Part shown: one piece after another, positions 8,965-64,000 of the stretch | How the letters are laid out: the number at the start of each line of letters is the position of its first letter | Position numbering within the stretch: position 1 is the first letter of the stretch | IMG/VR virus record: IMGVR_UViG_3300045999_011383 | Strand: one strand, 5' to 3' | Source: a virus | DNA: 64,000 bases | Notes under the pieces: model-generated | What the model was told of the DNA's origin: nothing | Seen by the model: the letters and a program-made list of their open reading frames with translations, nothing else | Databases searched by the model: none | Translations under genes and position numbers: made by a program

Positions 8965-9321
8965 ATGCAGTTGGGAACTATGAAAAATACTCAATCAAAA
9001 ATAGACTACAGTAAGCGATACGGAAATCCTAGAAAGTATCGCCAACAATGCGCGATCGCTCACAAGTCAACCCATGGGCTATGCTGTTATTGCATTACTA
9101 GCAAATCAGATGAATTACATCATGCCTACTACGGCAAGGATGTCATAGGAGAATCGGTATTTCCTGTTTGCTTACGTTGTCATCAAACTATCTGTCATGA
9201 CCCCAAGAATTGGATTATAGACCACAAAAATCAATTGTGGAAAAATAGAAACACCACCAAGTTTTTAGAAAGACTAAAATTAGGTTACAGGCTATTATAT
9301 GAAGGCATAAACCTGATATAA
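8965..9321 (+). CDS. HNH/Zn-finger nuclease-like protein
   Basis: CCYC...DELHHAYY...CLRCHQTICHD arrangement of Cys and His residues. Confidence 0.45.
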   Translation: MQLGTMKNTQSKIDYSKRYGNPRKYRQQCAIAHKSTHGLCCYCITSKSDELHHAYYGKDVIGESVFPVCLRCHQTICHDPKNWIIDHKNQLWKNRNTTKFLERLKLGYRLLYEGINLI

Positions 9322-10374: not shown

Positions 10375-11511
10375 TTAATCTCTTATTTGCACAGGCATGG
10401 TTAAATATGTCATTTTTAATCCACTTAACGGAGTAAAAATAACTGGTTGCAACTGATGATTTAAGTGAATTTGAATCTCTGCGGAAGATAACTCTTTAAG
10501 TCCTTCCAAAAGATATTTAACATTAAACCCGACTTCGATATCAGTACCAGAAACTTGGGCTGGTATTGACTCTATAGCACTACCCACATCTTGAGTTTCG
10601 CAGGACAAAATTACTAGTTGATTGTCCCTATCTAAAGACAATTTGACAATATTGTTTTTCTGACTAGCTAACACAGAAATCCGTTCTAAGGTGCTAATAA
10701 ATTGTTTTCTGTCTATTGTTACTTCTCGCTCAAATTGCCTGGGAATTAATTGATTATAAGCAGGATAATGACCTTCTAATGTGCGACTGGTTAATCTTTG
10801 GTTTCCACGCACAAATACTACTTGTACCGGATCTATGTAAATTTCAACCTGTTCAGGAGCAGAACCCTGGCTTAACATTTTTTGCAATTCTCGTAACGCT
10901 TTAGCAGGAATTGTCACCTCTGATTCTTGATCCTCGTCTGACTCACGACTGGTTTCCACTACCGCTAATCTGTGTCCATCGGTAGAGGCAAATTCTATAC
11001 TATCTCGCTTTAAGAAAAAATGCACACCAGTGAGAACCTGTTTAGTCTCATCAGAGCTAGTAGCAAATAAAGTACGTTGCAGTCCCTCGCTAAGTGCCGA
11101 AGCAGAAACCTCAATTGGTTCTACCTCGTGAACTGTTGGCAACTCAGGAAACTCATCAGCATTCATAGCACGGACTTGATAGCGACCGCTTTTAGGTTTT
11201 AAAGTGACGGTAATACCACCGCTTTCTTCTTCAGTGCTACTGATTGTAATGTCACCCTGGGGTAATTTAGAAACAATATCTAAGAGTAGTTTAGAAGGTA
11301 TGGTAATTTCACCACCCTGTAACACCTGAGCATCAAAAGTAGTACAAATGCCTAAACTTAAATCAAAGGAAGTTAATTCCACTTGATCAGTGTCGCTGTT
11401 AGCCTTTAACAAAATATTAGCAAGTACCGGATGAGTTGGGCGTGAAGGAACAGCACGACTAGCCAAAGAAAGATTGGCGTTAAGTTCAGATTGAGAGCAA
11501 ATTAATTTCAT
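10375..11511 (-). CDS. dnaN: DNA polymerase III beta sliding clamp
   Basis: 378 aa. Canonical N-terminus MKLICSQSELNANLSLASRAVPSRPTHPVLANILLKA, and a three-domain length. Confidence 0.9.
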   Translation of the reverse strand: MKLICSQSELNANLSLASRAVPSRPTHPVLANILLKANSDTDQVELTSFDLSLGICTTFDAQVLQGGEITIPSKLLLDIVSKLPQGDITISSTEEESGGITVTLKPKSGRYQVRAMNADEFPELPTVHEVEPIEVSASALSEGLQRTLFATSSDETKQVLTGVHFFLKRDSIEFASTDGHRLAVVETSRESDEDQESEVTIPAKALRELQKMLSQGSAPEQVEIYIDPVQVVFVRGNQRLTSRTLEGHYPAYNQLIPRQFEREVTIDRKQFISTLERISVLASQKNNIVKLSLDRDNQLVILSCETQDVGSAIESIPAQVSGTDIEVGFNVKYLLEGLKELSSAEIQIHLNHQLQPVIFTPLSGLKMTYLTMPVQIRD

Positions 11512-11640: not shown

Positions 11641-13086
11641 ATGACCGAAAAACCAGGGGAATATACAGCCAAGTACAAGCCAACTCAATTAATTCAAGGA
11701 ACTGGACAGACTGCATTGATAACAGGATGGACTATCAAAGAAGCAGTCCAAAAACATTTGAGTAACCATGAATATGCAGTTATTGGGCAACTATACTCAC
11801 CCACAAGAGGGATTAACTTAGTGGTTCGGAATCTGCTATTAAATCCTCATGTTAGGTACTTAGTAATTCTCAATGGAACTAAGGAAGACAAAAACGCAGG
11901 TGGCTGTCAATGTTTAGCTGACTTTTTTCGTTATGGTTTCAATAAAGGTATTAGTGATATTGGTAGAAAAACCTGGGTAATTTCTTCTTCTATTACTGGC
12001 TATATTGACATCGAGATTGATATGAATGTTTTAAAAAAATTGCGTGAGTCTGTAGAAATCAAGGAAGTACAATCAATAGCCCAAGCTGTTGAAGCGGTCA
12101 GAGATTATGCAACTAAAAAACCCGTTGCACCTTGGGGAACACCCTTAGAATTTCCCATGAGTACAATTGAATCAAATACCCTACCAGGACCCCTCTATGG
12201 TCACAGAATAGAGGGTAAAACCATTGCGGAAACCTGGGTAAAAATCATCCATAGAATTAAAACAACCGGGGTGATCCGACCCACTAGCCATGATGGAACG
12301 TGGCAGGAATTGATAGATTTAATGGCAATTATTACCAATGAGCCTGATGATTTTTACTTTCCTGAACCCAACTATTTGCCAGTAGATAGAAGTTTTTTAC
12401 AAGAATATATTTCTCAGATATTAGAGGACGCGCCTAGTCAAGAAGGGATAAAATACACCTATGGACAAAGGTTACGTTCCTGGTTTGGTAAAGACCAGGT
12501 TCGACAGGTAATTGAAAAGCTAACCCATGACATTAATTCCGCCAGGGCTGTAATGTCTCTGTGGGATATTAAAGAAGACAACGATGAATCTAATCCCCCC
12601 TGTTTAAATCATATTTGGGTAAGGGTAGTCAGCGGTGAACTGTCTTTAACCGCAACCTTTCGTAGTAATGATATGTTCTCAGCATGGCCAGCCAATGCCA
12701 TGGGTTTAAGGGCTTTACAGAAATATATTTATAGTGCTTTATTGAGTTCCCATCAATCCCTCAAATTAGGTCCATTGATTACCATTAGTCAGAGCGCTCA
12801 TATTTATGATGATTGTTTTGAGAATGTCAGCAAGGTAATCTCATCTCAGTATGGTAAGATTGCCAAAAACCAGGATTACTCTGATCCTGTGGGGAATTTT
12901 ATTATTAGTAATCAAGAGGGTAAAGTCGTGGTTGAGCATACCACCCCTGGTTCAGGAGAGGTGGTTAATTGTTATTCAAATAAGTCCGCTTATAAGGTGT
13001 CACAAGAAATAATGAGAGATTGTCCAGGGTTGCAAAACTCCCATGCTATGTATTTGGGATGGGAGTTGTGCAAGTTAAAGTATTAA
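11641..13086 (+). CDS. thymidylate synthase / dNMP hydroxymethylase family enzyme with about 250-aa N-terminal extension
   Basis: ThyA-type motifs are present: PPCLNHIWV (catalytic Cys), FRSNDMFSAWPANAMGL and SQSAHIYDD. The N-terminal half is unassigned. Confidence 0.7.
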   Translation: MTEKPGEYTAKYKPTQLIQGTGQTALITGWTIKEAVQKHLSNHEYAVIGQLYSPTRGINLVVRNLLLNPHVRYLVILNGTKEDKNAGGCQCLADFFRYGFNKGISDIGRKTWVISSSITGYIDIEIDMNVLKKLRESVEIKEVQSIAQAVEAVRDYATKKPVAPWGTPLEFPMSTIESNTLPGPLYGHRIEGKTIAETWVKIIHRIKTTGVIRPTSHDGTWQELIDLMAIITNEPDDFYFPEPNYLPVDRSFLQEYISQILEDAPSQEGIKYTYGQRLRSWFGKDQVRQVIEKLTHDINSARAVMSLWDIKEDNDESNPPCLNHIWVRVVSGELSLTATFRSNDMFSAWPANAMGLRALQKYIYSALLSSHQSLKLGPLITISQSAHIYDDCFENVSKVISSQYGKIAKNQDYSDPVGNFIISNQEGKVVVEHTTPGSGEVVNCYSNKSAYKVSQEIMRDCPGLQNSHAMYLGWELCKLKY

Positions 13087-13201: not shown

Positions 13202-14224
13202 CTAGGAAACCTTGATTTCAGCGATCGCTTCTTCTAAATGTTCCTGAATCACTAATCCCTCTCGCTCTAAAATCGCTCGTTTAGCTGCATCTTGGGCAAC
13301 CCTCACAGCTTGAGCCGCAGAAAAATCTTTCATCTGTTCAATAATTCTTGGCCAGTTGATAGATCCCACTTCAATTGCAGATAGTGTTTCCCTCAGTATA
13401 AATTCTAGTTCTTTTTCTCCCGGTTTGGGTACTGCAATCAGATCATCAAATCTCCTCCATAGGGCAGTATCCAAAGATTTATTCAAATTCGTAGCGGCTA
13501 CCATAAGCCCAGAAGAAGGTTGATATTCATCCAAAATTTGCAAAAATGTATTTACTACTCGCTTAATTTCTCCCACTTCCTGAGAATCTTCTCGTGTCTT
13601 AGCAATTGAGTCACATTCATCTAAAAATAATAAACATGGATTTTTTGCAGCATCCTCAAATACCAGTCTTAAATTACTGGCTGTCTCCCCTAAAAAAGAC
13701 GACACCATTGCATCAAAACGTACTTTTAACAGTGGTAAACCTGTATTCCAGGCTAAACGTTCTGCTCCTAATGTCTTTCCACACCCAGGCGGTCCATAAA
13801 GGAGAATTTTTTGCCGATAACGCAGCCCATGATGAGCTAGTCTATCTCTTGCTGCATACTCGCGCTCAATTCTTTGAAAACGCTTTTCAATTTTTTCAGG
13901 CAATACCATGTAATGACGTAGTTTATCCCTTGGTATGGTCGTTACCAAGGGAAGGTTAAAACGCTTACTGGTTGGTAATTCGCTTAAACCCTGTAAGTTT
14001 TCTCCTGTTGTTTGTGTGGCATTTGCAAGAAAGGAAACAGGTTTGATAGGGTCGGGAGATTGATCTCTGGGTTTCTTTTTAGCAATATTCTCTAACTGGT
14101 CAGCAAGGAGGGTATGCCCTTTACTGCGCTCTTCTTCTATGACCAGATATGCAAGTTTGTCAATCGCTTCTTGGTCTGAACTAGCGATCGCTCTGAAAAA
14201 CCTTTTGAGAATCTCTCCCTTCAT
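13202..14224 (-). CDS. classic-clade AAA+ ATPase
   Basis: Walker A GPPGCGKT, Walker B LLFLDECD, sensor VAATN and the second-region-of-homology motif ALWRRFD. Confidence 0.8.
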   Translation of the reverse strand: MKGEILKRFFRAIASSDQEAIDKLAYLVIEEERSKGHTLLADQLENIAKKKPRDQSPDPIKPVSFLANATQTTGENLQGLSELPTSKRFNLPLVTTIPRDKLRHYMVLPEKIEKRFQRIEREYAARDRLAHHGLRYRQKILLYGPPGCGKTLGAERLAWNTGLPLLKVRFDAMVSSFLGETASNLRLVFEDAAKNPCLLFLDECDSIAKTREDSQEVGEIKRVVNTFLQILDEYQPSSGLMVAATNLNKSLDTALWRRFDDLIAVPKPGEKELEFILRETLSAIEVGSINWPRIIEQMKDFSAAQAVRVAQDAAKRAILEREGLVIQEHLEEAIAEIKVS

Positions 14225-14323: not shown

Positions 14324-14406
14324 TTGCAACTGGGCTTTGACTTGCAATTAACCCAGTCCCTCAAGGTCGGCTTCTTGCAATTAACCCAGTTCCCCAAGTC
14401 CGGTTT
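14324..14406. repeat. decayed CRISPR repeat remnants
   Basis: TTGCAACTGGGCTT (14324..14337) is the exact reverse complement of repeat positions 22-35. Two 30-bp units CTTGCAATTAACCCAGT(C/T)CC(T/C)CAAG(G/T)(T/C)CGG lie at 14341 and 14374. Confidence 0.55.
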
Positions 14407-15543
14407 GCTTCAACTATCCTCAGTCCCTAAGCCCAGTTGCAAGTGTCAAGGGGTTTATTTTCGAAACCCTTATATTTCCTACGTCGTTTCAACTATCCTC
14501 AGTCCCTAAGCCCAGTTGCAAGTGAAGGACGTGATTCTAATGCAGCAAAGAACATCTGTTTCAACTATCCTCAGTCCCTAAGCCCAGTTGCAAGACACAT
14601 TCTTTATCTTTTAAATATAGCTTATACCATCTGTAGTTTCAACTATCCTCAGTCCCTAAGCCCAGTTGCAAGAACACCTTACCACCTTTAAGGTAAGACG
14701 GCACTTTAGGTTTCAACTATCCTCAGTCCCTAAGCCCAGTTGCAAGACAGAATTGAGAGAACTTTCAAGCCATAAGAGAGTAGCGTTTCAACTATCCTCA
14801 GTCCCTAAGCCCAGTTGCAAGATTTTCAAAAATTTAAAAATGAATCTGGACATGAAGATGTTTCAACTATCCTCAGTCCCTAAGCCCAGTTGCAAGAATG
14901 CACATTAACAAAAAAAAACCATGAAAAACCGTTTCAACTATCCTCAGTCCCTAAGCCCAGTTGCAAGAAAACTTATCAGATACTTAATAAGGCTATAGGT
15001 TAGTTTCAACTATCCTCAGTCCCTAAGCCCAGTTGCAAGCTCCCATTTATACAGCTTACTAGCAGCGCAAATAGTTTCAACTATCCTCAGTCCCTAAGCC
15101 CAGTTGCAAGTCAAAAATCAACAGGAATTGGCCACTACTATTGAAGGATGTTTCAACTATCCTCAGTCCCTAAGCCCAGTTGCAAGATAAAGCCGTCCGG
15201 GGAGGCATGACTAATGAGGATGGTTTCAACTATCCTCAGTCCCTAAGCCCAGTTGCAAGTTGAGACAGTTAAACCCAAGGTACTTTAACCTAGTTTCAAC
15301 TATCCTCAGTCCCTAAGCCCAGTTGCAAGAAAGTATTAAAGAAATGCTCAAACTACCGGCATGTTTCAACTATCCTCAGTCCCTAAGCCCAGTTGCAAGT
15401 TGCTACATTTACCATACTTATGGAAACTGTCAATGTTTCAACTATCCTCAGTCCCTAAGCCCAGTTGCAAGTTACTTTGTAAGACGTTATGTAAGACGGC
15501 GATGGAGTTTCAACTATCCTCAGTCCCTAAGCCCAGTTGCAAG
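14407..15543. CRISPR. CRISPR array with 16 repeats of 37 bp and 15 spacers
   Basis: Repeat GTTTCAACTATCCTCAGTCCCTAAGCCCAGTTGCAAG starts at 14407 (this copy begins GCTT), 14486, 14558, 14636, 14710, 14785, 14860, 14931, 15003, 15074, 15150, 15223, 15293, 15363, 15435 and 15507. The spacers are unique and 33-42 bp long. Confidence 0.95.
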
Positions 15544-15886
15544 TCCCGGCTTTCAAAAGCTTTATAAGTCAAGGGTTTCAAAGGCAATTCTGGCGGACCT
15601 GCTAAAAAATCTCATTTCAGCCGCTTAAATCAGCTTGGGTCTTTAAAAGAAACTGAGCGAAACTCTTGCAATGTCATGGTTCTGGACTTTTGGCGAATGT
15701 CCAGGGTTTTTACCCTAGCTTTGATATGCCAAAAAGATGAGATAGTTGCCAGCCATAGTTCCGGCTGGTCTTTGGGGGTTGTCGCCTTCCCCCTTACTTT
15801 TTAGGGTAAAACCCTTACAAGTCATAAGCTAACATTACATTAGCTACCCGTCCAAACTGCGGTAATTTAATATTAACCTAGTCCTA
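15544..15886 (-). ncRNA. candidate leader / tracrRNA-like structured region (hypothetical)
   Basis: 343 nt with no ORF between the nuclease stop and the array. Hairpins at 15682..15704, 15703..15716, 15749..15768 and 15774..15793. GAGATAGTTG at 15739..15748 resembles the repeat end. Confidence 0.3.
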
Positions 15887-17761
15887 TTACTTTGTCAAGC
15901 GTTTTTTCTTAAATCTTTTAGGCTTTTGATAAACCAGCCTAACATTATGGTATTTGACCTCTCCCAATTCAAAACCACCATTCTGTTTATGATTTCTAGC
16001 AGCATTGGTATCAGCTTGTTGGGCAACGTCAAATAATTTACAGTCAGGGTTTTTACAGACAAATTCATACTGCGATCGCCTTTCCCCTTTCTGTCCGCAA
16101 CAATGGCATATTTGAGAGCTATAATTAGCAGGTGGTTCATGGAAGTTGCCACCTCTATTTTCTATTTTTTGCTTGGTTTTAGCTTTCAAGTCACCTAAAC
16201 ATCTTTGTCTCATAATCCAGTTTAAACCACGTTTAGCAGATGCACCATTGTGAGCATATCCCACACCCTCTGGTAATGCTTTTGGATCTACTTGTTTAAG
16301 TAAGTTGGTAACTTGTGTATCCTCCCAAGATATATGTTCATAAGTGCGAGATAATCTTGTGGATAACTTGTGATTAAAGGCATTAGAGGAATTAGCCCCG
16401 CGTTCGTGTAGACGGCTGATTTTTTGTTGTAACTTAGATTCATTCTTTGTCTTGATTCTAGAGGTCTTGTTGCCTAAGCTTTTCCATTTTTTATCATTAA
16501 TTAATTCAGCGTTGTCTAGACGTGATTGTAATTCCTCAATGTGAATTGAGATCCGCTCCCTAGTAAGGTTAGGAAGGAATAAAGCCCCATGATCTGTAGA
16601 CACTACAGCCTGTACCCCAGGGTCAATACCCGCACTCAGATTTTTACCTTTTAAAACTGATGACTGCTTAATTTGTTGCTCAATGAATTTCAGTTTTGAC
16701 TTGATATCTTGGTACTCTTCACTGTCTTCACCAAACTCTTTTTTTACCTTGGGTAACTTATTTGTTAGTACAGACTTTTCCTCTTGCAATGGGTGAGCAA
16801 CTACAATATTAATGTAGTATCCTGACTGCTGTTTGGTAATCATGTATGTCCGTGGCAAAACCTGAGAAAGATTCAATCTTTTTACCCAGTTTTTGTCAGC
16901 AATAGTGATGGGAGTAAGTCCGGTGACAGTAACTATGTTTTTGTCAATGTCAATCCTGTTAGGCGCACATTGATTATTAGATAAAGTTGCAATCTTGTCT
17001 ACATCTTTTTTGAATTTTGGCTTTCTACTGTTTATCCTTTTAGGATCTAAAAATGCCTTCCAAGATTCCTTAAAAAATGCTAACAGCCCGCCAATATAGT
17101 GGGAAGAAACCTGCAAGTCTGGTAAATTTTGGAATGCTCTTAAAGTATTTAATCCAGTCACGTTGTCAAGTTTTTCCAAAGTAGTCAGTTCCCTACCCTC
17201 ATACTTTCCACTAGGGAATGTGCGGTATTTGTGAGGGACTATTTCTATCCGTTGCCAGGGCTTATCGCCTTTAACTAATTTGTACCCCTTGACGTAAATA
17301 ACGCCTTTTTTGGTATTAACTGGAATATTGATATTTTCATCTCTCTTCCAATAATTCCCGCCTGTGGCTATTTGACAGGATAATCCTTCATAAGCACTAT
17401 TTCCAAGCCTTAATGGCACAGGAATAATGCCTTCCAAGCTAAATGGACTCCATCTGGTAAATATCTCAAATTCTTTCTTGCTAACTAATTCCTGTTCTTT
17501 TTTAGACAGCTTAGGCTTATCCTTGGTGGAATAGTAATCTTTAACTAATTGTTGTTGCTCAGGTTTAAGTTTTTCCAGTTTTTCAGTAGCCTTGGTTAAA
17601 TCTGCACTGCGTTTAGCAGCCCAAGCATACCAATCTACGCAGTGATTGTGTAGTTGGTTGGAAAGTGCTAAATTCCACAGCCATGTTAATTCATCTAAGT
17701 AGCGATCGCACACAGCCGCCTGTTCTGATGAGAGTTTGATTTTAATCTTAATTGTCTTCAT
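15887..17761 (-). CDS. TnpB/Cas12-family RNA-guided-nuclease-like protein (candidate type V effector)
   Basis: 624 aa. RuvC-I AGIDPGV, RuvC-II ISWEDT, Zn finger CHCCG...CKNPDC, RuvC-III QADTNAARN. TnpB-like N-terminus IKIKLSSEQAAVCDRYLDELTWLWNLAL. Confidence 0.85.
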   Translation of the reverse strand: MKTIKIKIKLSSEQAAVCDRYLDELTWLWNLALSNQLHNHCVDWYAWAAKRSADLTKATEKLEKLKPEQQQLVKDYYSTKDKPKLSKKEQELVSKKEFEIFTRWSPFSLEGIIPVPLRLGNSAYEGLSCQIATGGNYWKRDENINIPVNTKKGVIYVKGYKLVKGDKPWQRIEIVPHKYRTFPSGKYEGRELTTLEKLDNVTGLNTLRAFQNLPDLQVSSHYIGGLLAFFKESWKAFLDPKRINSRKPKFKKDVDKIATLSNNQCAPNRIDIDKNIVTVTGLTPITIADKNWVKRLNLSQVLPRTYMITKQQSGYYINIVVAHPLQEEKSVLTNKLPKVKKEFGEDSEEYQDIKSKLKFIEQQIKQSSVLKGKNLSAGIDPGVQAVVSTDHGALFLPNLTRERISIHIEELQSRLDNAELINDKKWKSLGNKTSRIKTKNESKLQQKISRLHERGANSSNAFNHKLSTRLSRTYEHISWEDTQVTNLLKQVDPKALPEGVGYAHNGASAKRGLNWIMRQRCLGDLKAKTKQKIENRGGNFHEPPANYSSQICHCCGQKGERRSQYEFVCKNPDCKLFDVAQQADTNAARNHKQNGGFELGEVKYHNVRLVYQKPKRFKKKRLTK

Positions 17762-19852: not shown

Positions 19853-20371
19853 GTGACAACCAATCATTACGGAATGCCACAGACACGAGACAAGTGTTAT
19901 GGCGTGGCTGCTTGTTTAAGTTATTGGGTTTTTAAATGCCGTGACAGGAAACGTAGTCCAGCCATGGGAACTAAAACCTGGACATATTTGGAATCTTCTA
20001 TCAAGAATTGTGCAGAAATATCCACAAATTTAGAAGATTATCTACAAAATCTTTGTGATAAATTGATATCGCAATTAAGACCTGTAGAGCTAACCAAAAT
20101 TATTCAACCAACTCAGAGAATACTGAGAATTAATGAAGATGCAACTGAAATCAAGGAACTACCAATAGATCGAAGTTTGGTTTTTATGGGGTGGCTTGAC
20201 TTGCTTGCCGATATTGAACCCCACGGATTTAGTGAGTGGGACGTAATGGAATTGTTAAGAACAAAAACAGGAGTTATTCAAGTAATTTGTCGTCTGCGAT
20301 TTGAAGAAGATAGAAGTGTGGGGCTTGATGAACCAGAAGAATTTATTGAGGTAGAGGTGACAAATGTTTGA
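19853..20371 (+). CDS. first gene of the RAMP operon, possible small-subunit (Cas11-like) protein
   Basis: 172 aa with a GTG start after GGGAAAG. The 8-nt overlap with the next gene and the size fit, but I saw no diagnostic motif. Confidence 0.3.
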   Translation: MTTNHYGMPQTRDKCYGVAACLSYWVFKCRDRKRSPAMGTKTWTYLESSIKNCAEISTNLEDYLQNLCDKLISQLRPVELTKIIQPTQRILRINEDATEIKELPIDRSLVFMGWLDLLADIEPHGFSEWDVMELLRTKTGVIQVICRLRFEEDRSVGLDEPEEFIEVEVTNV

Positions 20372-21497
20372 TAATTATAATATTTTTGACAGAGAGAAAT
20401 TAACCCTGCATTGCTTAATCACGCTACAGACACCATTGAGCCATATAGGCGAAGTGTCTGGCAATGTTAGCAATCTGAAAACTACTAAGTTATTGGACTT
20501 TGAAGGTAATCCTAGAAGTGTTTTTGTCTATTCTGGTAATGCAATCAGAAACGGTATTTTGCGCCGGGTAGGAGTGGCAGCAGCACTCACGGAATTAGGA
20601 ATTAAGGTAAATCCAGATACTCACCATACAATGTTTGCTGGCGGGCGAATTGATGGGGGGACAGCTTCGGATATGGAACTGGATAAAAAGATCCGGGTCT
20701 TTATGCCTTGGCTATCAGTATTGGGAACAGCCAAACCCATAGGTGTTTTTGGGACTAAAGAAGCCCAGATGGTAGCTGGTAGAAGTAATATTGGCAGTGG
20801 TTATTTAGTCTGCTATGAGTCAGCAGAATACGTTTACAACCAACTCCCAGCAGTTTTACCACCGGAAATACAGCCAACTATGGCCTTATTAATTGAAGCT
20901 AAAACCAGACTTTCTTCCGACCCTTTTGTATCCACAAAATCAGAAGACTTAACTAACTGGAATCAAGCAAAATCAGAATGTTTGCCACTGATCAAAAAAG
21001 CAATGAAAACATGGACTGAATACTTAACAATTGATCAGACAACTCGCAGAGATAGCACTTTAGATCCCAACTTACTCAAATTTCTACCATCAGAAGTACA
21101 AGCACAATTAACAGGTGATGGTAAAACTAAAGAAAAAACTAAATCAGATCAGATGATTGCGTCTGACAGGCTGATCATGCCCGGTGCTAAACTTTATTCT
21201 CGATGGGATCTAACTTGTACTCAAATAGAAGAGGGATGGATATTTGATACTTTACTCAAGTTTTCAGAATCACCTTATATTGGTGGTAAAGGCAATCGTG
21301 GCAATGGCAGGGTTCATCTTGATTTCTGGTTTCAGTCTGACCATGAACGGGGGTTATTGTGTTCTCTGAAAGATGGAATTATGGGAGATAGGTTTCTTAA
21401 TTCCCATCAAAAATATCGGGAATATATCAATCAGTATCAGCAGTTTTTAAGTGAAGCAAAAACATCCAAGGAATTAAGGAAGTTGTTAGGTGAATAA
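20364..21497 (+). CDS. RAMP protein, Cas7/Csf2-like backbone subunit
   Basis: 377 aa. N-terminal LHCLITLQTPLSHIG, then YSGNAIRNGILRR, and a C-terminal glycine-rich loop YIGGKGNRGNGRV typical of RAMPs. Confidence 0.6.
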   Translation: MFDNYNIFDREKLTLHCLITLQTPLSHIGEVSGNVSNLKTTKLLDFEGNPRSVFVYSGNAIRNGILRRVGVAAALTELGIKVNPDTHHTMFAGGRIDGGTASDMELDKKIRVFMPWLSVLGTAKPIGVFGTKEAQMVAGRSNIGSGYLVCYESAEYVYNQLPAVLPPEIQPTMALLIEAKTRLSSDPFVSTKSEDLTNWNQAKSECLPLIKKAMKTWTEYLTIDQTTRRDSTLDPNLLKFLPSEVQAQLTGDGKTKEKTKSDQMIASDRLIMPGAKLYSRWDLTCTQIEEGWIFDTLLKFSESPYIGGKGNRGNGRVHLDFWFQSDHERGLLCSLKDGIMGDRFLNSHQKYREYINQYQQFLSEAKTSKELRKLLGE

Positions 21498-22176
21498 TTT
21501 AAAAGTCACTGCATATTTGTCTACACCGATTGGTGTCTATGACAATTGGAGTCCTTCTTTGGAGGGACTTCTTACCTATAGATTACTAGAAGAAAATAAT
21601 CTATTGTCTCCCAATCCCACCGCAGAGCAAGTAGCAAAGGTTCAGAATTTTTTAGTAAATGAATTACCGCTTAAACAGAATACAATAATGAATGATAAGT
21701 ATTTCTGTGTAAGTTCACCTTGCTATGTGGTTCAAGGTGAGGCTACTGATAAATATCGGAAAAGATGGGACAATCACGAAAATAATCTGAACTGGGGAAA
21801 AAGAAAGCCTAAATTCTTGACGGGTGAAGGTGCAGAAAAGTCCTATGATTTACCGCTATACACTCGTTTAACAAATAGTATTAGTTGGTTTGTAACAGGC
21901 GACAGAACCAAGATTGACGCTCTATTGTCACCTGTTACCCATATTCAGAAAAAACGAAGTTATGGCAATGGTGAAGTTAAGCAATGGCAACTAGAAATAG
22001 TTTATGACGACTATCATTTGTGGCGAGATAATAAACTAATGCGTCCTATGCCCGTGAAGTTAATATCACAAAAAATAGATAATCCTCAAATGATTTGGGG
22101 ATGGAAAAGCCCGTCTTGGTTAGCAGAAAATAAAGAACTTTGTTATATGCCAAAGGACAATGTGATTTATGCTTAG
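21490..22176 (+). CDS. RAMP protein, Cas5/Csf3-like
   Basis: 228 aa. LKVTAYLSTPIGVYDNWSPSLEGLLTYRLL N-terminus and a KKRSYGNGEV glycine loop. Overlaps both neighbouring genes. Confidence 0.5.
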   Translation: MNNLKVTAYLSTPIGVYDNWSPSLEGLLTYRLLEENNLLSPNPTAEQVAKVQNFLVNELPLKQNTIMNDKYFCVSSPCYVVQGEATDKYRKRWDNHENNLNWGKRKPKFLTGEGAEKSYDLPLYTRLTNSISWFVTGDRTKIDALLSPVTHIQKKRSYGNGEVKQWQLEIVYDDYHLWRDNKLMRPMPVKLISQKIDNPQMIWGWKSPSWLAENKELCYMPKDNVIYA

Positions 22177-22915
22177 TAATGGCTCTGGGGTTCAATACCC
22201 TTGGTTGAAAAAGAAAATTACTAAAGCTATTAATTTCATTAATCAGTGGCTAGAACAATGCAACTATCAGGTTTATGCAAGTATTTCCGGTGGTAAAGAT
22301 AGCTTAGTAATGTCTCATTTGATCAGGAAAGTTTACCCTGATTGCCCGTTAGTTTGGGTAAATCAAGGGCTGTTAGCAGAATGGGATGATTGTATTGAAT
22401 TATTGGAATACTTGAAAACTCAAAACTGGAACATTATTGAGCTTTGTCCAGTTCGTGATTTATGGCATTTATACATAGATCACGGAGTTCCGTTAGAGGG
22501 TACGATGGATACAAAAGTAGATAAATTAATCAACCAAAAATTGATTTATGATCCATTGCAAGAATACCAAGAAATCAACAATATCAAAGGGTACGCATGG
22601 GGAATAAGGAAGCAAGAAAGCAAAAACAGAGCATTTTATCTTAACAAGTACGGTGAAGTTCATGAACTAAAAAATGGGTTAATTTGTTGCTCGCCTATTG
22701 CTCACTGGACTACAGAAGAAATATGGCAGTACATAGATATGTACTCACTCAAATACCCAGCAATTTATGACATTAACAAAATGACAGTCAGGAATGGTTG
22801 CCCGATTGGAACTACAGGAGCAAACTGGGGTAGATTAGCTGAATTAAAAAGATATTACCCCAATATTTACAACCAATTTGTTGATAAATTCCCACAAATA
22901 TCGAACTATGTCTAA
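22169..22915 (+). CDS. PAPS-reductase/CysH-like PP-loop protein
   Basis: PP-loop SISGGKDS and WGIRKQESKNR. I saw no C-terminal ECGLH motif (it reads RNGCPIG instead). Confidence 0.8.
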   Translation: MLSNGSGVQYPWLKKKITKAINFINQWLEQCNYQVYASISGGKDSLVMSHLIRKVYPDCPLVWVNQGLLAEWDDCIELLEYLKTQNWNIIELCPVRDLWHLYIDHGVPLEGTMDTKVDKLINQKLIYDPLQEYQEINNIKGYAWGIRKQESKNRAFYLNKYGEVHELKNGLICCSPIAHWTTEEIWQYIDMYSLKYPAIYDINKMTVRNGCPIGTTGANWGRLAELKRYYPNIYNQFVDKFPQISNYV

Positions 22916-23666
22916 TTGCTACCTTTGCGCTAAACCAGCATCAAATCCACTAGAATTATCCAATACTTTCACCATGCACTCATCGGCTAAGTGTCCAGAC
23001 TCTAAGCTGCTGTGCGATCGCTGCTATTCTACAATTTCTGGTAATCAAAAGCAGTTATGGTATTGGAATGAAGGTAAAAATAAGTGGTCAAAACTGTGGG
23101 GACGATCTTTGTCCAGGGTGTACCAAGGCGATACTTTAATAGCACCAATAATTAAAGGCACTCACACTGAAGGCAAAGATACTTTCAGTGTGGTTAGAAA
23201 CTTATTGACGCGGGTAGAAATCAGGGAATATTTATTAAATCCTCCTGAGCCACCGTTCACTATCGCTATAGCAGAATCAGGACAAAAACACATTATCCCA
23301 TGGGCATTAGAAGCGCGTAGCTGTAACTTTTTTCCAATTCAATTTGAGTTAGACACGGTTTATATTGACAACAGATTCAAGGAATCTTTGCAAGTATATG
23401 AACAACTAATGGGATTAGGGTTTAGTAAGTCTGAAATTGATTCAGGAAACTACAGAAGCGATAGATTGATGAAAGTGTTTGATAAATTTTGGGAACTTGA
23501 GGAATCCATAAAAGCCATTAGAGGGACTAGATTAATGGAATTAATAAATTACGTCGCTCAACTACAATCAAGTGCCGTCGTGGCGGAAATAAAGCCAATT
23601 CCTGTAATTCCTGTTTCTCCCACGAGTCCAGACAAATCAAATCCAGTTCAGTTATCGTTGTTTTAG
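22908..23666 (+). CDS. Zn-ribbon protein, Csf1-like large-subunit candidate, with C-terminal clamp-binding motif
   Basis: The ATG at 22908 overlaps the cysH-like stop (ATGTCTAA). N-terminal CYLC...CPDSKLLCDRC. The C-terminus is NPVQLSLF followed by the stop. Confidence 0.45.
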   Translation: MSNCYLCAKPASNPLELSNTFTMHSSAKCPDSKLLCDRCYSTISGNQKQLWYWNEGKNKWSKLWGRSLSRVYQGDTLIAPIIKGTHTEGKDTFSVVRNLLTRVEIREYLLNPPEPPFTIAIAESGQKHIIPWALEARSCNFFPIQFELDTVYIDNRFKESLQVYEQLMGLGFSKSEIDSGNYRSDRLMKVFDKFWELEESIKAIRGTRLMELINYVAQLQSSAVVAEIKPIPVIPVSPTSPDKSNPVQLSLF

Positions 23667-23699
23667 CAAAAACCCTTATAATTCCGATCCGTTAAAAAT

Positions 23700-23774
23700 A
23701 ACGCTGGAGTCTTTAAAATCAACGCTGGAGTCAGCAAAGATAACGCTGGAGTCCTTAAAATTAACATTGGAGTC
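23700..23774. repeat. four 21-bp-phased iterons AAC(G/A)(C/T)TGGAGTC
   Basis: Cores at 23700, 23721, 23742 and 23763. They are followed by the AT-rich tandem AACAATCTTAATT x2 (23805..23830). The same core occurs at 41848..41901. Confidence 0.7.
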
Positions 23775-23854
23775 GTTAATTTTAAGGTTTCATCTATATT
23801 ATTAAACAATCTTAATTAACAATCTTAATTAAGAGTCTCTAGTTTAAGTACAAA

Positions 23855-31431: not shown

Positions 31432-31653
31432 TTATTCCTCTTGCTTAAATGGCTCATCAAACCCCCACTGATGAGCTAAAAGTTTTTCGTAGCTTAATCT
31501 TTGGATCTCGTGATGCCTAAACAGATTAATCAAAACCTGTTGAGTTTGTTCATGGGACATCTGCCTAACCTGTTGCTCAAATGCAACTATCTTAAATTGT
31601 GAAGCAAGTGGTAATTCTTCAAATTGGCTCATAATAAGATCCCAGACATACAT
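31432..31653 (-). CDS. hypothetical protein
   Basis: 73-aa ORF. Confidence 0.45.
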   Translation of the reverse strand: MYVWDLIMSQFEELPLASQFKIVAFEQQVRQMSHEQTQQVLINLFRHHEIQRLSYEKLLAHQWGFDEPFKQEE

Positions 31654-41330: not shown

Positions 41331-41387
41331 ATGAATCATCTTTTGGTTTTTGTCAATAAACTGTTGCACGCCCGTGGAGGTGTGTAA
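41331..41387 (+). CDS. possible 18-codon leader ORF coupled to the initiator gene
   Basis: MNHLLVFVNKLLHARGGV. Its TAA overlaps the initiator ATG (TAATG), and AGGAG lies upstream. Confidence 0.3.
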   Translation: MNHLLVFVNKLLHARGGV

Positions 41388-42562
41388 TGGGAAAACACTT
41401 AATAAGACACTACGGACGGTATATTTATCGTCATGAAGATTATCAGGCGATTTGTCAAGGGGATGACTGCGCCGCACAAGTTCTTAGTTTATTTGAGTTC
41501 TGGACCAGTTGCCGAATAGAAGAGATTCGGCGTGTACAAAGCTACAACGATCAAAACAAGAAAAATACTTCTCTTGTTTTGCAAGTACCAACGATGTGGT
41601 TGTACGAAACCACTGAAGATATAAGCATAGGCATATTAAATGCCTATGGCGACTCGTCCATAAGGAAGTCAGTTAAAAAGCTTCTTGACTGGGGGTTTCT
41701 TGATTCAAGAAATTCTAAGCACAATTTTGATCGAACTAAAGAATACAGATTTAACACTGATGTGATTCAATCAGCACTAGATCAGTGGAACAATCAAAAT
41801 CAAGATGTAAACGCTGAAAGCATTGATAAATCCGATCCGTTAAAAACAACGTTGGAGTCGGTGAAAAAAACGTTGGAGTCGGTGAAAAAAACGTCGGAGT
41901 CGGTGATTTTAGAGGATGATCTATATTCTTCTAACATTCAAATTAAACAATCAGATTTAACAGCAGGGGTGAAAAGACCAGAAGTAGAAAATCAACTTGT
42001 GGATTTAAACCCAAACCACTCTAGAACTTTTGATTTAAAAGGAAGTCTTTCCCATAACCCGATAACCCCTCCAGAGGGTCAATTTGCGCCCGCCGCCCCG
42101 GCGCGTCTTGACAAAGCGAATATTACTGAACCATTTGGAAGGCCGCGCAAGACGGCTAAAGAAATAGCCTGGGAATGGCTACCAGATGGACCGTGGAAGA
42201 AAGAAGGGCAACTGGATAATGAGTTCTGGCAATGGCTCGCGTTGCAGTGGATGTCGCAGTTTGGCACTGATATCCATCAGGCGAGGGCTAACGTCTACAG
42301 CCACTTCAAAAAGGACACTAACAACCTAGAAATCCGATGGAAGGAATATTCCATCAAAACCAAAAAAGAGGTGGCTGTAACACCCCTTCCTGAAATTGTA
42401 TTAACGTGGCTGCCTATGCAGCATCAGGTCGTATGGGAACAGTACATCAACTGCAAGAGCCTAGAAGAATTTTATAGCAAGCGCAGTTGGAATCAAGCGT
42501 ATTTGGAGTACGCATTAATCAATCAAGCCAACTTTGATTGGTCTAAACATTTATCTGCATAA
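41387..42562 (+). CDS. replication initiator (lambda O-like logic: iterons inside the gene)
   Basis: 391 aa with a wHTH-like N-terminal half. It contains 3 phased iterons that encode TLESVKK repeats, and it lies directly upstream of dnaB. Confidence 0.55.
   Translation: MGKHLIRHYGRYIYRHEDYQAICQGDDCAAQVLSLFEFWTSCRIEEIRRVQSYNDQNKKNTSLVLQVPTMWLYETTEDISIGILNAYGDSSIRKSVKKLLDWGFLDSRNSKHNFDRTKEYRFNTDVIQSALDQWNNQNQDVNAESIDKSDPLKTTLESVKKTLESVKKTSESVILEDDLYSSNIQIKQSDLTAGVKRPEVENQLVDLNPNHSRTFDLKGSLSHNPITPPEGQFAPAAPARLDKANITEPFGRPRKTAKEIAWEWLPDGPWKKEGQLDNEFWQWLALQWMSQFGTDIHQARANVYSHFKKDTNNLEIRWKEYSIKTKKEVAVTPLPEIVLTWLPMQHQVVWEQYINCKSLEEFYSKRSWNQAYLEYALINQANFDWSKHLSA
41848..41901. repeat. three 21-bp-phased iterons AACG(T)(T/C)GGAGTC inside the initiator gene
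   Basis: Cores at 41848, 41869 and 41890. The flanking CCGATCCGTTAAAAA also precedes the 23700 cluster. Confidence 0.7.
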
Positions 42563-61353: not shown

Positions 61354-64000
61354 TTACCGCTTATAAGGATTACCTCTACTGATAGAACCACCGGGTCTTA
61401 ATTCCCTGCGAATACCATCGCTCACAAGTGCCTGTACAGTCTGTGACAACCTGTTAGAATCAACCTCTGAATCATTGCCACTTACGGATACACTGACAGG
61501 GACATTAACGGTAGTAGTATTGCCAATCCTTGAGGCCATCTCACCTTTACCACCACCGACTATACCACCATCAGCAAAACCAGTAATACCAGATTGCAAT
61601 CTATTCCAAACAGCCGTTTCCCTGTGATTAAGAATACGCTCACCTTCAGAAGCTACTATCAAGTGGGGTGTCTTACCAGTGAGAGAGCGTTCTTTGTTCA
61701 TTGCTCCCACAATCCCCCCGTTAGCAAAATTCTGGATTTTACCCAGGGTATCTTTATCAATCATGCCACCCTTAGCAAATCCTGATAGAGTGGCTGTACC
61801 AAAATCACTGGCCACAAAAGTAGAAGGATCTACAAAATCCATGCCAGTGGGAACAAAAGAGTTAATACCTCCTAAGTTCATTAGCCCAAAAGACATATCA
61901 CCTCCCATGCCGGCAAAATCAGAAATATCAGACGTATTCCCCTTGTCCTTACCTTCCCCGCCTTCCTTCTGTCTAGCGGTGTTTGCTGCATCTTGAAGTG
62001 CGTAGGCAGCTTTTTCTAATTCGTGAGCAGATTTAGACAATAGTTGAACAGACACGGCTGCTTGTTGTAGTTGCAATGCTGCTGCGCTTAACCCCTGGGT
62101 TGGTGGTTGTATCCAACTAAAGAGCGCATTAGTCATGTACTTGGATGCAATTTCAGCTAAACTATCAAGGATACTATTAGCTATTCCTTTCCAAAGCTTA
62201 TCCAGTGAATCAGCCCAACTATCTCCTTCTTTGTTCCAAATAAATTCTTTAAAGGCACTCTTAAAGCCACCTGTGAAAGACTTGAGAACTTGGCTAAACT
62301 CTGAATATTGAATCTTAATAGCTTCTGATTTTAATGCCATTTCCGCATCTAAATTTTCTCTAAGCGCGATCGCATTTTCATTGCTGATTTTCATATTTTC
62401 AACATCTTGTTCTAGTTGCATCTTCTTCTGTGCGTACTCATGGCTTAAATTAATTTGGGCTATCTGCTTATCAATTCTTTCCCCAGCCAGGTCAAGTCCT
62501 AGTGCCTTAGCAATATTACCTTTACTCTCTAATACAGTTTTAGCGGAATCAGATACTTTGATCCTAGTATCTAATTCTGTTTTTTGATTTTGTAGTTCAC
62601 CCTTGCGAGTATCGCGCTCAGATTGTTTTCTAATTGCACCTAACTCAAGTCCACTGTTTACTTTGAGAGCATCTATGCGTTGTTGCCTTTGTTCTGCGGT
62701 GAGTTTAGTATTGTTTTGGGTGTCAAGGATTTCTCTATTAAGTCTGTTTAATGCACTTTCCTGTTCCAGGGTAGCCCGCTTAGAAATATTAGCAACATCT
62801 ACCATGCCATCTGCGGCTGTGGCTGCAAACATCTTTGCCTGTAAATCTAAGTTTTTAATACCAACATCCTCAATCAAGATTTTGACATCTAAAGCATTTA
62901 TTTCTCGTTCAATTTGTTTGGCTAAATTGTCAGTATTGTACTGCATATCAACTTTTTCCATCCCTAATTTATAGGTTGTTTCAATCGCCTTTCTTCTGCG
63001 CTCAAAGTCCTCTTTAGTCATTGATCCCCGCTTAGTTCTCTGTTGCTCTAGTAATTCATTCTCAGATTTTAGTTTTTGATTTTGTAAACTAGCGATCGCT
63101 ACTACCCGCTCCATTGATGGTATCTGCAATATATCTTTATTTAATGGGAACGATTTTTCTTTTTGTTTAAGCAACTCTAATTGACTTTGCAGTACGCCTA
63201 TATCAATACCAAGATTGTCAGACATACGAGTGTTTTGTGATATTTTTTGCCTAAAAATAAAATCATCTTTAAGCCGTTGTAGGATCATAGGCTTGTTTTT
63301 TATCAGGGCATTTAATTGGTTTTGGGCTGACTGGGCTTCTTTGGTATTGGAACTTTGCAAAGCACTATAGAGTTTTTGCAGTTCTTTCCCGTCCGTTTTT
63401 ATGCCAAGTGATTGAAGTCGCTTAACCAAAGTGTTAATTTCTTCTCCAGACAGATTGGGCATTCGAGATGCGCGAACAATCTTTCTGAGACTATTACTTT
63501 CTTCATCTATCCTGAGTGATTCCTCTGCGTATGCTAAATCAAATTTTTTCTGTTCAGTAGCAGCAGGGTCACTATCAAGAAGTATCTTCCTAGTAGTTAG
63601 TTCACGTCGTCGTCTACGTAGGTCTGTATCATCTTTTTTGTTTTCAGTCTCTATTCTTAATTTTCTCAGATCCGTTAGTGCTTTGATTATGGCAGCCCTC
63701 TCCTGTTCCTTTGAGAGTCTAATTTGTTCCTTTGTTAACTGTGTCTTTGTCTGTGCATTAGCAGTGGGTGCTTGAGGGATAAGTTGTTGTTGTGTTTTGG
63801 AATCAAGTTTTTCCCCTCTTATCTGTTTTTCTGTTAGTTTTCTAGCAGTGTCTTGAGGGGTTTCTGTTGGTTTTTCTTCTCTCTTTCGTGCTTCTTCTCT
63901 CTTTCGTGCTTCTTCTCTCTTTCGTGCTTCTTCTCTCTTTCGTGCTTCTTCTCTCTTTCGTGCTTCTTCTCTCTTTCGTGCTTCTTCTCTCTTTCGTGCT
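61354..64000 (-). CDS. tail tape measure protein, 5' end outside the window
   Basis: I translated 63463..64000 by hand in the frame of the 702-aa ORF and found no stop and no Met, so the gene is at least 882 codons. It has long coiled-coil content, a Gly-rich C-terminal part, and sits before the tail-tip genes. Confidence 0.7.
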   Translation of the reverse strand, partial: ARKREEARKREEARKREEARKREEARKREEARKREEARKREEKPTETPQDTARKLTEKQIRGEKLDSKTQQQLIPQAPTANAQTKTQLTKEQIRLSKEQERAAIIKALTDLRKLRIETENKKDDTDLRRRRRELTTRKILLDSDPAATEQKKFDLAYAEESLRIDEESNSLRKIVRASRMPNLSGEEINTLVKRLQSLGIKTDGKELQKLYSALQSSNTKEAQSAQNQLNALIKNKPMILQRLKDDFIFRQKISQNTRMSDNLGIDIGVLQSQLELLKQKEKSFPLNKDILQIPSMERVVAIASLQNQKLKSENELLEQQRTKRGSMTKEDFERRRKAIETTYKLGMEKVDMQYNTDNLAKQIEREINALDVKILIEDVGIKNLDLQAKMFAATAADGMVDVANISKRATLEQESALNRLNREILDTQNNTKLTAEQRQQRIDALKVNSGLELGAIRKQSERDTRKGELQNQKTELDTRIKVSDSAKTVLESKGNIAKALGLDLAGERIDKQIAQINLSHEYAQKKMQLEQDVENMKISNENAIALRENLDAEMALKSEAIKIQYSEFSQVLKSFTGGFKSAFKEFIWNKEGDSWADSLDKLWKGIANSILDSLAEIASKYMTNALFSWIQPPTQGLSAAALQLQQAAVSVQLLSKSAHELEKAAYALQDAANTARQKEGGEGKDKGNTSDISDFAGMGGDMSFGLMNLGGINSFVPTGMDFVDPSTFVASDFGTATLSGFAKGGMIDKDTLGKIQNFANGGIVGAMNKERSLTGKTPHLIVASEGERILNHRETAVWNRLQSGITGFADGGIVGGGKGEMASRIGNTTTVNVPVSVSVSGNDSEVDSNRLSQTVQALVSDGIRRELRPGGSISRGNPYKR
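63873..64000 (-). repeat. perfect 18-bp tandem repeat, at least 7 copies, encoding (ARKREE)n in the tape measure gene
   Basis: CTTCTTCTCTCTTTCGTG units start at 63873 (1 mismatch), 63891, 63909, 63927, 63945, 63963 and 63981, and continue to the window edge. Confidence 0.9.

Follow-up and report, generated by a model that had tools for sequence, protein, structure and literature searches.

A cyanophage locus that is very probably a type V-P (Cas12p) CRISPR-Cas system

We examined a 64,000-nucleotide stretch of viral DNA (IMG/VR record IMGVR_UViG_3300045999_011383; called the window below, meaning the whole stretch) in which a gene for a RuvC nuclease lies beside a CRISPR array. An earlier note, made from the sequence alone, had described the protein as a candidate compact Cas12-like effector derived from TnpB and carried by a phage. 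That description held, as the protein is 88.3% identical to Cas12p and phage genes are present. Together, our results indicate that the locus is very probably a type V-P CRISPR-Cas system (Cas12p) of a cyanophage. The gene, which we call cas12p and which occurs in one copy within the 64-kb window, is followed on its own strand by a predicted promoter, a trans-activating CRISPR RNA (tracrRNA), and the array:

15887..17761, minus strand: cas12p, an open reading frame (ORF) with an ATG start that encodes 624 amino acids.
15870..15898, minus strand: predicted sigma-70-like promoter (TTGACA-17 nt-TAATAT) that would serve the tracrRNA and overlaps the stop codon of cas12p.
15664..15863, minus strand: tracrRNA, with 5′ end ACCGCAGUUUGG, conserved hairpins, and a split anti-repeat; its 3′ end is placed by sequence only.
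14407..15543, minus strand: CRISPR array of 16 repeats of 37 nt (in gene sense, CTTGCAACTGGGCTTAGGGACTGAGGATAGTTGAAAC) and 15 spacers of 33–42 nt.
14523..14557, minus strand: spacer 2, with matches in C2c8/V-U2 effector genes of rival cyanophages, where these encode RuvC-III.

The domain order of the protein is WED/REC with a thioredoxin-binding (TB) insertion, protospacer-adjacent motif (PAM)-interacting (PI) helices, RuvC, and a zinc finger. Every signature that the earlier note had listed is present: RuvC-I is GIDPG with D380, RuvC-II is WED with the catalytic residue E480, and RuvC-III is ADTNAARN with D584, so that the D-E-D triad is intact, and the four-cysteine zinc finger reads C552-x2-C555 ... 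C569-x4-C574. Comparison of 28 family members revealed that D380, E480, D584, C552, C555, and C574 are invariant, while C569 is retained in at least 90%. Pfam returned only Cas12f1-like_TNB (a TnpB/Cas12f-type zinc ribbon) and a weak match to OrfB_IS605. The top NCBIfam family was C2c8 (V_cas_c2c8; 187.6 bits, E 4e-55, cutoff 350), with guided_TnpB second (91.4 bits, cutoff 100) and IS200_TnpB at 36.9 bits (cutoff 425).

When PDB sequences were searched with the single protein (phmmer), 9jfs_A, annotated "Cas12p", matched with 1268.4 bits and residues 1–615 aligned. A profile of the family gave the same protein as its top match (9jfs_A / 9jg3, 943.8 bits), with TnpB, Cas12f, Cas12m, and TranC far weaker and no Cas12k chain at E ≤ 1. 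Alignment with the Cas12p portion of the 9jfs chain revealed 541 identical residues of 613 (88.3%) and a single indel of 2 amino acids. Two IMG/VR contigs, L008 and L009, carry a gene whose product is identical to the 9jfs protein (613/613). Cas12p, the "Cas12 hacker" of type V-P, was described by Wang et al. (bioRxiv 10.1101/2025.01.20.633832; structures PDB 9jfs and 9jg3). The earlier note had left the subtype undecided and perhaps new. Our profile and PDB searches supply the assignment and remove the novelty, as the subtype has already been found, assayed, and structurally solved; the window locus confirms it and reveals no new system.

Wang et al. (bioRxiv 10.1101/2025.01.20.633832) reported a phage-encoded family of twelve members of 500–700 amino acids, with hosts undetermined. 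The published enzyme depends on a tracrRNA (185-nt tracrRNA, 37-nt repeat, conserved AAAC:UUUG pseudoknot), uses a GTN PAM like that of ShCas12k, and performs staggered cleavage of double-stranded DNA (dsDNA) as well as trans cleavage. It is switched on by host thioredoxin (TrxA) in a hydrophobic pocket of REC/TB, the binding residues being W44/Y45/W47/L51 of REC, residues of TB.a, and C127. Of 28 published functional residues that we checked, the window protein keeps 26; L51R and K332N are the two changes. The published RuvC triad (D378/E478/D582) maps one-to-one onto D380/E480/D584, and the basic TB.b residues are all identical (7/7). In the TrxA-contact pocket, 13 of the 14 residues listed in the preprint are kept, including the thioredoxin-reactive cysteine (C129 here), with L51R the exception. 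This cysteine is present in 26 of 27 family members, and the region around it is missing from the V-U2 protein of Aphanizomenon phage CL131. The PAM contacts D199, N263, and Q264 are conserved, and published K332 corresponds to N334. By analogy with the published orthologue, the window Cas12p would have the same GTN PAM, cleavage pattern, and thioredoxin dependence.

The array, placed correctly by the earlier note, lies 343 nt from the 3′ end of cas12p, with its leader side adjoining the tracrRNA. We assign its reading direction to the minus strand, with the gene first and the tracrRNA and array following, because the repeats end in AAAC at the 3′ end, this order is conserved in orthologues, and the distal repeat, at 14407, is degenerate through mutation. 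A 26-nt core of the repeat was absent from 185,579 genomes, each standing for one bacterial or archaeal species. Thus, these cellular genomes give no evidence of an array shared with the host.

A promoter scan at 15898–15870 found 10 of 12 matches to the sigma-70-like consensus, with transcription predicted to start ~6 nt past the promoter, at 15863, the A of ACCGCAG. We infer from the sequence that this promoter is used. The cultured phage Cr-LKS4 has a similar promoter-scaffold order, TTGACA-17-TATAAT followed by ACCGCAG. The start motif CCGCAGTTTGG is invariant in 12 of 12 loci with a downstream array, and the 5′ segment ACCGCAGTTTGG (15863–15852, minus strand) is likewise invariant in 12 loci. 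The independently predicted start, ACCGCAGUUUGG, places GUUU (15857–15854), the partner of the 3′ AAAC of the repeat, at tracrRNA positions 7–10, exactly as in the publication; the window tracrRNA also agrees with the published 185-nt tracrRNA and its AAAC:UUUG pseudoknot.

The intergenic region that separates gene and array is conserved even where the repeats of the loci differ. RNAalifold analysis of 12 sequences revealed hairpins with compensatory double changes in 15 of 25 pairs. In the 12 loci, an anti-repeat ~135–170 nt past the stop codon is complementary to the repeat of the same locus and covaries with it. The anti-repeat:repeat duplexes, at −22 to −44 kcal/mol, follow the differing local repeats (L015, −44.5 kcal/mol; L026, −40; L021, −36). 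For L020 and L021, the best-pairing anti-repeat lies further downstream, ~225–270 nt past the stop codon. An insertion of ~60 nt divides the anti-repeat in two in the window and its nearest relatives; the window halves are 15749–15738 and 15673–15664, and a U-run follows at 15609–15604. No Rfam family and no tRNA were found anywhere in the window.

We determined how widely this arrangement is conserved. A protein search returned 56 homologues, nearly all on 40–100-kb contigs or in Nostocales-named entries (Anabaena, Sphaerospermopsis, Nostocaceae, Scytonema). The cultured Cylindrospermopsis cyanophages Cr-LKS4 and RM-2018a carry a 45%-identical homologue, and that of phage CL131, which its authors described as a putative V-U2 effector (PMC6293099), is 29% identical. 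Pattern-based scans recovered 12 loci in IMG/VR and, across one genome each of the 185,579 species, seven loci in four assemblies, all cyanobacterial. In every orthologue of at least 50% identity with enough flanking sequence, an array lies 288–396 nt past the stop codon on the same strand, with the conserved tracrRNA between. For one 37%-identical locus, the distance to the downstream array is 522 nt. At four ~40%-identical loci (L022–L025), all of one Leptolyngbyaceae assembly, tracrRNA and array stand upstream of the gene and are transcribed divergently from it. Repeats vary between loci, yet all are 37 nt long and end in ...TGAAAC in gene sense. The earlier note had looked to orthologues for an association with arrays, and among informative loci the array is missing only at the 45%-identical Cr-LKS4. 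Since arrays stand at orthologous loci despite differing repeats, the association of gene and array is not chance adjacency.

Two of these relatives bear on how the cassette is built and spreads. The contigs of L022–L025 share a ~2.3-kb module at 86–89% identity and have unrelated flanks outside it, so the cassette moves from one genomic background to another. In Cr-LKS4 (L001, 7902–8630), a 668-amino acid homologue without an array has two tandem 364-nt units upstream, each consisting of a TTGACA-17-TATAAT promoter, a scaffold starting ACCGCAGTTCGG, and a divergent tail of ~150 nt. A hairpin of this scaffold carries compensatory changes relative to the window tracrRNA. They may represent single-guide RNAs, or RNAs of an omega-RNA-like kind, that occur naturally in a cultured phage.

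To characterize the carrier, we compared window ORFs of at least 100 amino acids that are not nested in a longer ORF with Pfam or NCBIfam. Phage markers include minor tail protein L, a TipJ-like protein, a Mu-type portal, and DnaB helicase; methyltransferases, KilA-N, DnaN, and a thymidylate-synthase-like protein are also encoded. A small ORF (31459–31614, minus strand) is 40% identical to NblA of the sister contig L004 (E 2e-8). NblA proteins, which act in phycobilisome degradation, are typical of cyanophages. The host is therefore a phycobilisome-containing cyanobacterium. It probably belongs to the Nostocales. None of the scanned ORFs encodes TnpA, Cas1, Cas2, Cas4, Cas6, or the Tn7 proteins tnsB, tnsC, and tniQ, and no IS200/605 ends were found; for TnpA and the IS200/605 ends, this agrees with what the earlier note had seen by eye. 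As no CGPC-type motif was present in any frame and no thioredoxin domain in the Pfam-scanned ORFs, the phage probably depends on thioredoxin of its host. With the 11-kb locus as query, megablast returned nothing from phage and plasmid collections.

Two further features of the window were recorded. The ORF at 11641–13086 (plus strand, 481 amino acids) joins an N-terminal region like MtrA (tetrahydromethanopterin S-methyltransferase subunit A) to a thymidylate-synthase-like C-terminal domain, which is an uncommon combination for a phage gene of nucleotide metabolism. At 63874–64000, a perfect 18-nt tandem repeat (TTCTTCTCTCTTTCGTGC; at least seven copies) reaches the right end of the window and is cut off there.

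We asked what the spacers match. Spacer 2 matched L008 at 11324–11358 (33/35, E 1.5e-9) and, in a 2.3-Gb phage set, phage CL131 (31/34, E 8e-3), where the mismatches fall at synonymous codon positions. Both target genes are bona fide C2c8, with 487.6 bits for L008 and 450.8 bits for CL131 against the cutoff of 350, and the CRISPR RNA (crRNA) of spacer 2 is antisense to the target mRNA. The 31-nt core of spacer 2 was absent from IMG/VR and a JGI metagenome set, the 26–27-nt cores of spacers 11 and 15 were absent from IMG/VR, and the array spacers of L008 and L021 had no match in the phage set. A spacer of L004 (10295–10330) matches the cas12p gene of L013 (7025–7060) at 36 of 36 positions and the cas12p gene of L004 itself (9025–9060) with one mismatch, the 5′ flank being TTG, not GTN. 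These matches tentatively suggest that related cyanophages aim arrays at each other's CRISPR effector genes.

On either side of the cassette are remnants of another array and a group of genes resembling a type IV-B system:

14324..14406, plus strand: array debris, consisting of an inverted fragment of the array's own repeat (14324–14337) and two degenerate copies, without spacers, of a second repeat type (CTTGCAATTAAC...).
19853–23666, plus strand: type IV-B-like module, 2.6 kb beyond the cas12p 5′ end, with neither an array of its own nor Cas6.
20364–21497, plus strand: Csf2/Cas7, weak match.
21490–22176, plus strand: Csf3/Cas5, weak match.
22169–22915, plus strand: PAPS-reductase/CysH-like gene (PAPS, 3′-phosphoadenosine-5′-phosphosulfate), clear domain match.
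22878–23666, plus strand: Csf1, weak match.

The second repeat type is intact in L008, as a 28-copy array beside the V-U2 gene. In that contig (8930–12662), the second array (CTTGCAATTAACTCAGTTCCCCAAGTCCGGTTTCACC) abuts a convergent C2c8/V-U2 gene of 587 amino acids (487.6 bits). As both Cas12p and V-U2 have an array there, two type V systems stand back to back in one phage. The debris repeats of the window are oriented relative to cas12p oppositely to those of L008, and, set against L008, the whole cas12p-tracrRNA-array cassette is flipped with respect to the type IV-B-like module. Debris and inverted cassette look like scars of rearrangement after loss of a V-U2 system. Directly past the debris, an AAA+ ATPase gene (13202–14224, minus strand) has as its best match the anti-phage ATPase IteA (226 bits, cutoff 510).

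The type IV-B-like region of the window is 90.8% identical at the nucleotide level to the matching region of L008, and a similar module lies near cas12p in L004 and L006 as well as in L008. PAPS reductases are thioredoxin clients. That a CysH-like subunit stands beside a nuclease tied to thioredoxin could be accidental or could reflect reliance of both on thioredoxin. The main text of the Cas12p preprint contains neither "V-U" nor "type IV". After the module, 21-nt tandem repeats with the core ACG(C/T)TGGAGTC occupy 23692–23779; a second set of 21-nt repeats with this core (41843–41906) lies inside the gene at 41387–42562, just upstream of the DnaB helicase gene. These repeats resemble iterons and may be origin or regulator-binding sites.

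We weighed three other explanations of the locus. That cas12p is an ordinary IS200/IS605-type TnpB, guided by omega-RNA and lying by chance beside an unrelated array, is scarcely credible. Its TnpB-type domains (Cas12f1-like_TNB, weak OrfB_IS605, guided_TnpB at 91 bits) and the label "transposase" borne by homologues in public sources would suit such an origin, but the guided_TnpB score is under its cutoff and TnpA is absent from the scanned window ORFs. The earlier note had set a multi-copy IS605/IS607 TnpB with recognizable ends against its own proposal; we found a gene that is single-copy in the window and at only seven loci, in four assemblies, across the 185,579 species sampled. In addition, gene, tracrRNA, and array occur together in every informative orthologous locus except Cr-LKS4, with an anti-repeat that covaries, and the protein is 88% identical to a nuclease whose guidance by crRNA and tracrRNA has been validated biochemically. 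It is also very unlikely that the protein belongs to subtype V-U2 (C2c8), the array-associated TnpB-like group that is frequent in cyanobacteria and has been reported on CL131. C2c8 is the best-scoring curated family (187.6 bits, E 4e-55), the ecological niche is alike, and the protein is 29% identical to the CL131 effector across WED/RuvC, with D/E/D aligned. However, the score is far under the cutoff of 350, which genuine C2c8 proteins (CL131 and the neighbor in L008) pass at 450.8–487.6 bits. Two large insertions, REC/TB at ~residues 35–215 and PI at ~330–375, are foreign to C2c8, and the array has the opposite orientation relative to the gene. Since L008 encodes Cas12p and C2c8 side by side, each with its own array, the two are distinct systems. 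A Cas12k-like, nuclease-dead effector was rejected, as the RuvC triad is intact, Tn7 genes are absent from the scanned window ORFs, and no Cas12k matched in the PDB profile search; the earlier note had likewise seen a difference from Cas12k.

A further alternative, which we consider unlikely, is that the array also or mainly serves another effector, either the type IV-B-like Csf complex or a host type I-D/III system dependent on Cas6, with Cas12p as a co-user. The type IV-B-like module (csf2, csf3, cysH-like, csf1) is 2.6 kb off and accompanies cas12p in L004, L006, and L008, and type IV-B-like Csf complexes typically lack an array of their own. The repeats end in the cyanobacterial-type handle ...TTGAAAC, two of three protospacer flanks are unlike GTN, and the antisense orientation of the spacer 2 crRNA to its target mRNA would suit RNA-targeting systems too. 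In contrast, covariation of anti-repeat and repeat ties the array to Cas12p, and Cas6 is absent from the scanned window ORFs. As the repeat core is absent from one genome each of the 185,579 species, no host array there shares it. Moreover, L003, L014, L016, L020, and L021 have no similarity to the type IV region of the window in the ~6–8 kb of flank on each side.

Several observations count against assignment of the locus to type V-P, or against the role that we propose for it. Adaptation genes were not found among the scanned window ORFs, and 14 of the 15 window spacers had no match in the 2.3-Gb phage set or the sister loci. The case for competition between phages depends on one window spacer with 2–3 mismatches. 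Only three protospacers, imperfect or near-self, were available; with 5′ flanks of GCA, TTG, and GTT, one of them fits GTN. In the protein, a residue of the TrxA pocket (L51R) and a PAM-contact residue (K332, N334 here) are substituted; mutation of the latter in the published enzyme (K332A) lowered activity only slightly (Wang et al., bioRxiv 10.1101/2025.01.20.633832). With these points taken into account, we still consider a type V-P (Cas12p) system carried by a cyanophage the very probable reading.

A model for such a system is that the same-strand promoter downstream of cas12p would drive a tracrRNA of ~200 nt, followed by the 16-repeat array. The anti-repeat would pair with the repeat, and the 5′ GUUU would form a pseudoknot with the terminal AAAC, giving a dual guide that would load into Cas12p. 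By homology with the published enzyme, Cas12p would recognize a 5′ GTN PAM and cut both strands with its single RuvC site. Also by homology, activation would occur only upon binding of host thioredoxin through the hydrophobic pocket and Cys129 in the REC/TB insertion. The phage most likely would use the system against competing mobile elements, since one spacer is directed to the V-U2 effector gene of related cyanophages.

The value of the locus is thus contextual and lies in the host, the V-U2 link, the effector-targeting spacers, and the type IV-B-like neighbor. The window provides a near-complete, 64-kb phage setting for a close Cas12p orthologue. It points to a cyanobacterial host, probably of the Nostocales, which the original study could not assign, and this assignment would identify the native thioredoxin cofactor. 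It also provides a first hint that Cas12p arrays target the CRISPR effector genes of other phages. The host assignment, the place of C2c8/V-U2 as nearest curated family, the cas-gene-targeting spacers, and the type IV-B-like link are all absent from the Cas12p preprint. A wider proposal, which we put forward tentatively and regard as doubtful, is that Cas12p cassettes serve phage-versus-phage warfare, probably among Nostocales cyanophages, and are aimed at the CRISPR effectors of rivals, with two CRISPR modules in one phage drawing on host thioredoxin or sharing crRNAs.

The published Cas12p and the window protein agree in the order of their domains and in catalytic triad, zinc finger, TrxA pocket, and cysteine. 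The layout of gene, tracrRNA, and array, the 37-nt repeat ending in AAAC, and the GUUU pseudoknot partner are common to both loci, and both are phage-borne and lack an adaptation module, in the window among the scanned ORFs. The carrier phages are related, as regions shared between the window and the contig encoding the published protein are 80–91% identical at the nucleotide level. The loci differ in that the window repeat departs at 5 of 37 positions, with the anti-repeat changed accordingly, the spacers are not those of the published locus, and the window protein has L51R and K332N. In the window, moreover, the orientation of the cassette to the type IV-B-like module is reversed, and only two degenerate repeats remain where the contig of the published locus has a V-U2 gene and its array.

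Among other systems, C2c8/V-U2 (Shmakov et al., 2017; CL131, PMC6293099) is alike in its TnpB-like core of RuvC and zinc finger, its cyanobacterial or cyanophage niche, the adjacent array, and the absence of adaptation genes. In contrast, the window protein is ~160 amino acids longer through its REC/TB and PI insertions, and the window locus has a separate, promoter-driven tracrRNA and the opposite array orientation. As C2c8 is the nearest curated family, Cas12p reads, as far as sequence comparison goes, as a V-U2-like core to which thioredoxin-binding and PAM-interacting insertions may have been added. Repeats of 37 nt, of the cyanobacterial type and ending in GTTGAAA(G/C), are a likeness to Cas12k. 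Cas12k (type V-K) also resembles Cas12p in its GTN PAM, two-helix PI domain, and the long tracrRNA that stands between gene and array (Wang et al., bioRxiv 10.1101/2025.01.20.633832), but RuvC is inactivated in Cas12k and intact in the window, where tnsB, tnsC, and tniQ are absent. TnpB and its omega-RNA (IS200/IS605, ISDra2) share the WED-RuvC-zinc-finger core and an RNA gene that starts at the 3′ end of the protein gene, and stems 1–4 and 6 of the Cas12p tracrRNA are counterparts of omega-RNA stems (Wang et al., bioRxiv 10.1101/2025.01.20.633832). Unlike TnpB, the window nuclease has no transposase, transposon ends, or multi-copy state, and its guide comes from an array via a separate tracrRNA.

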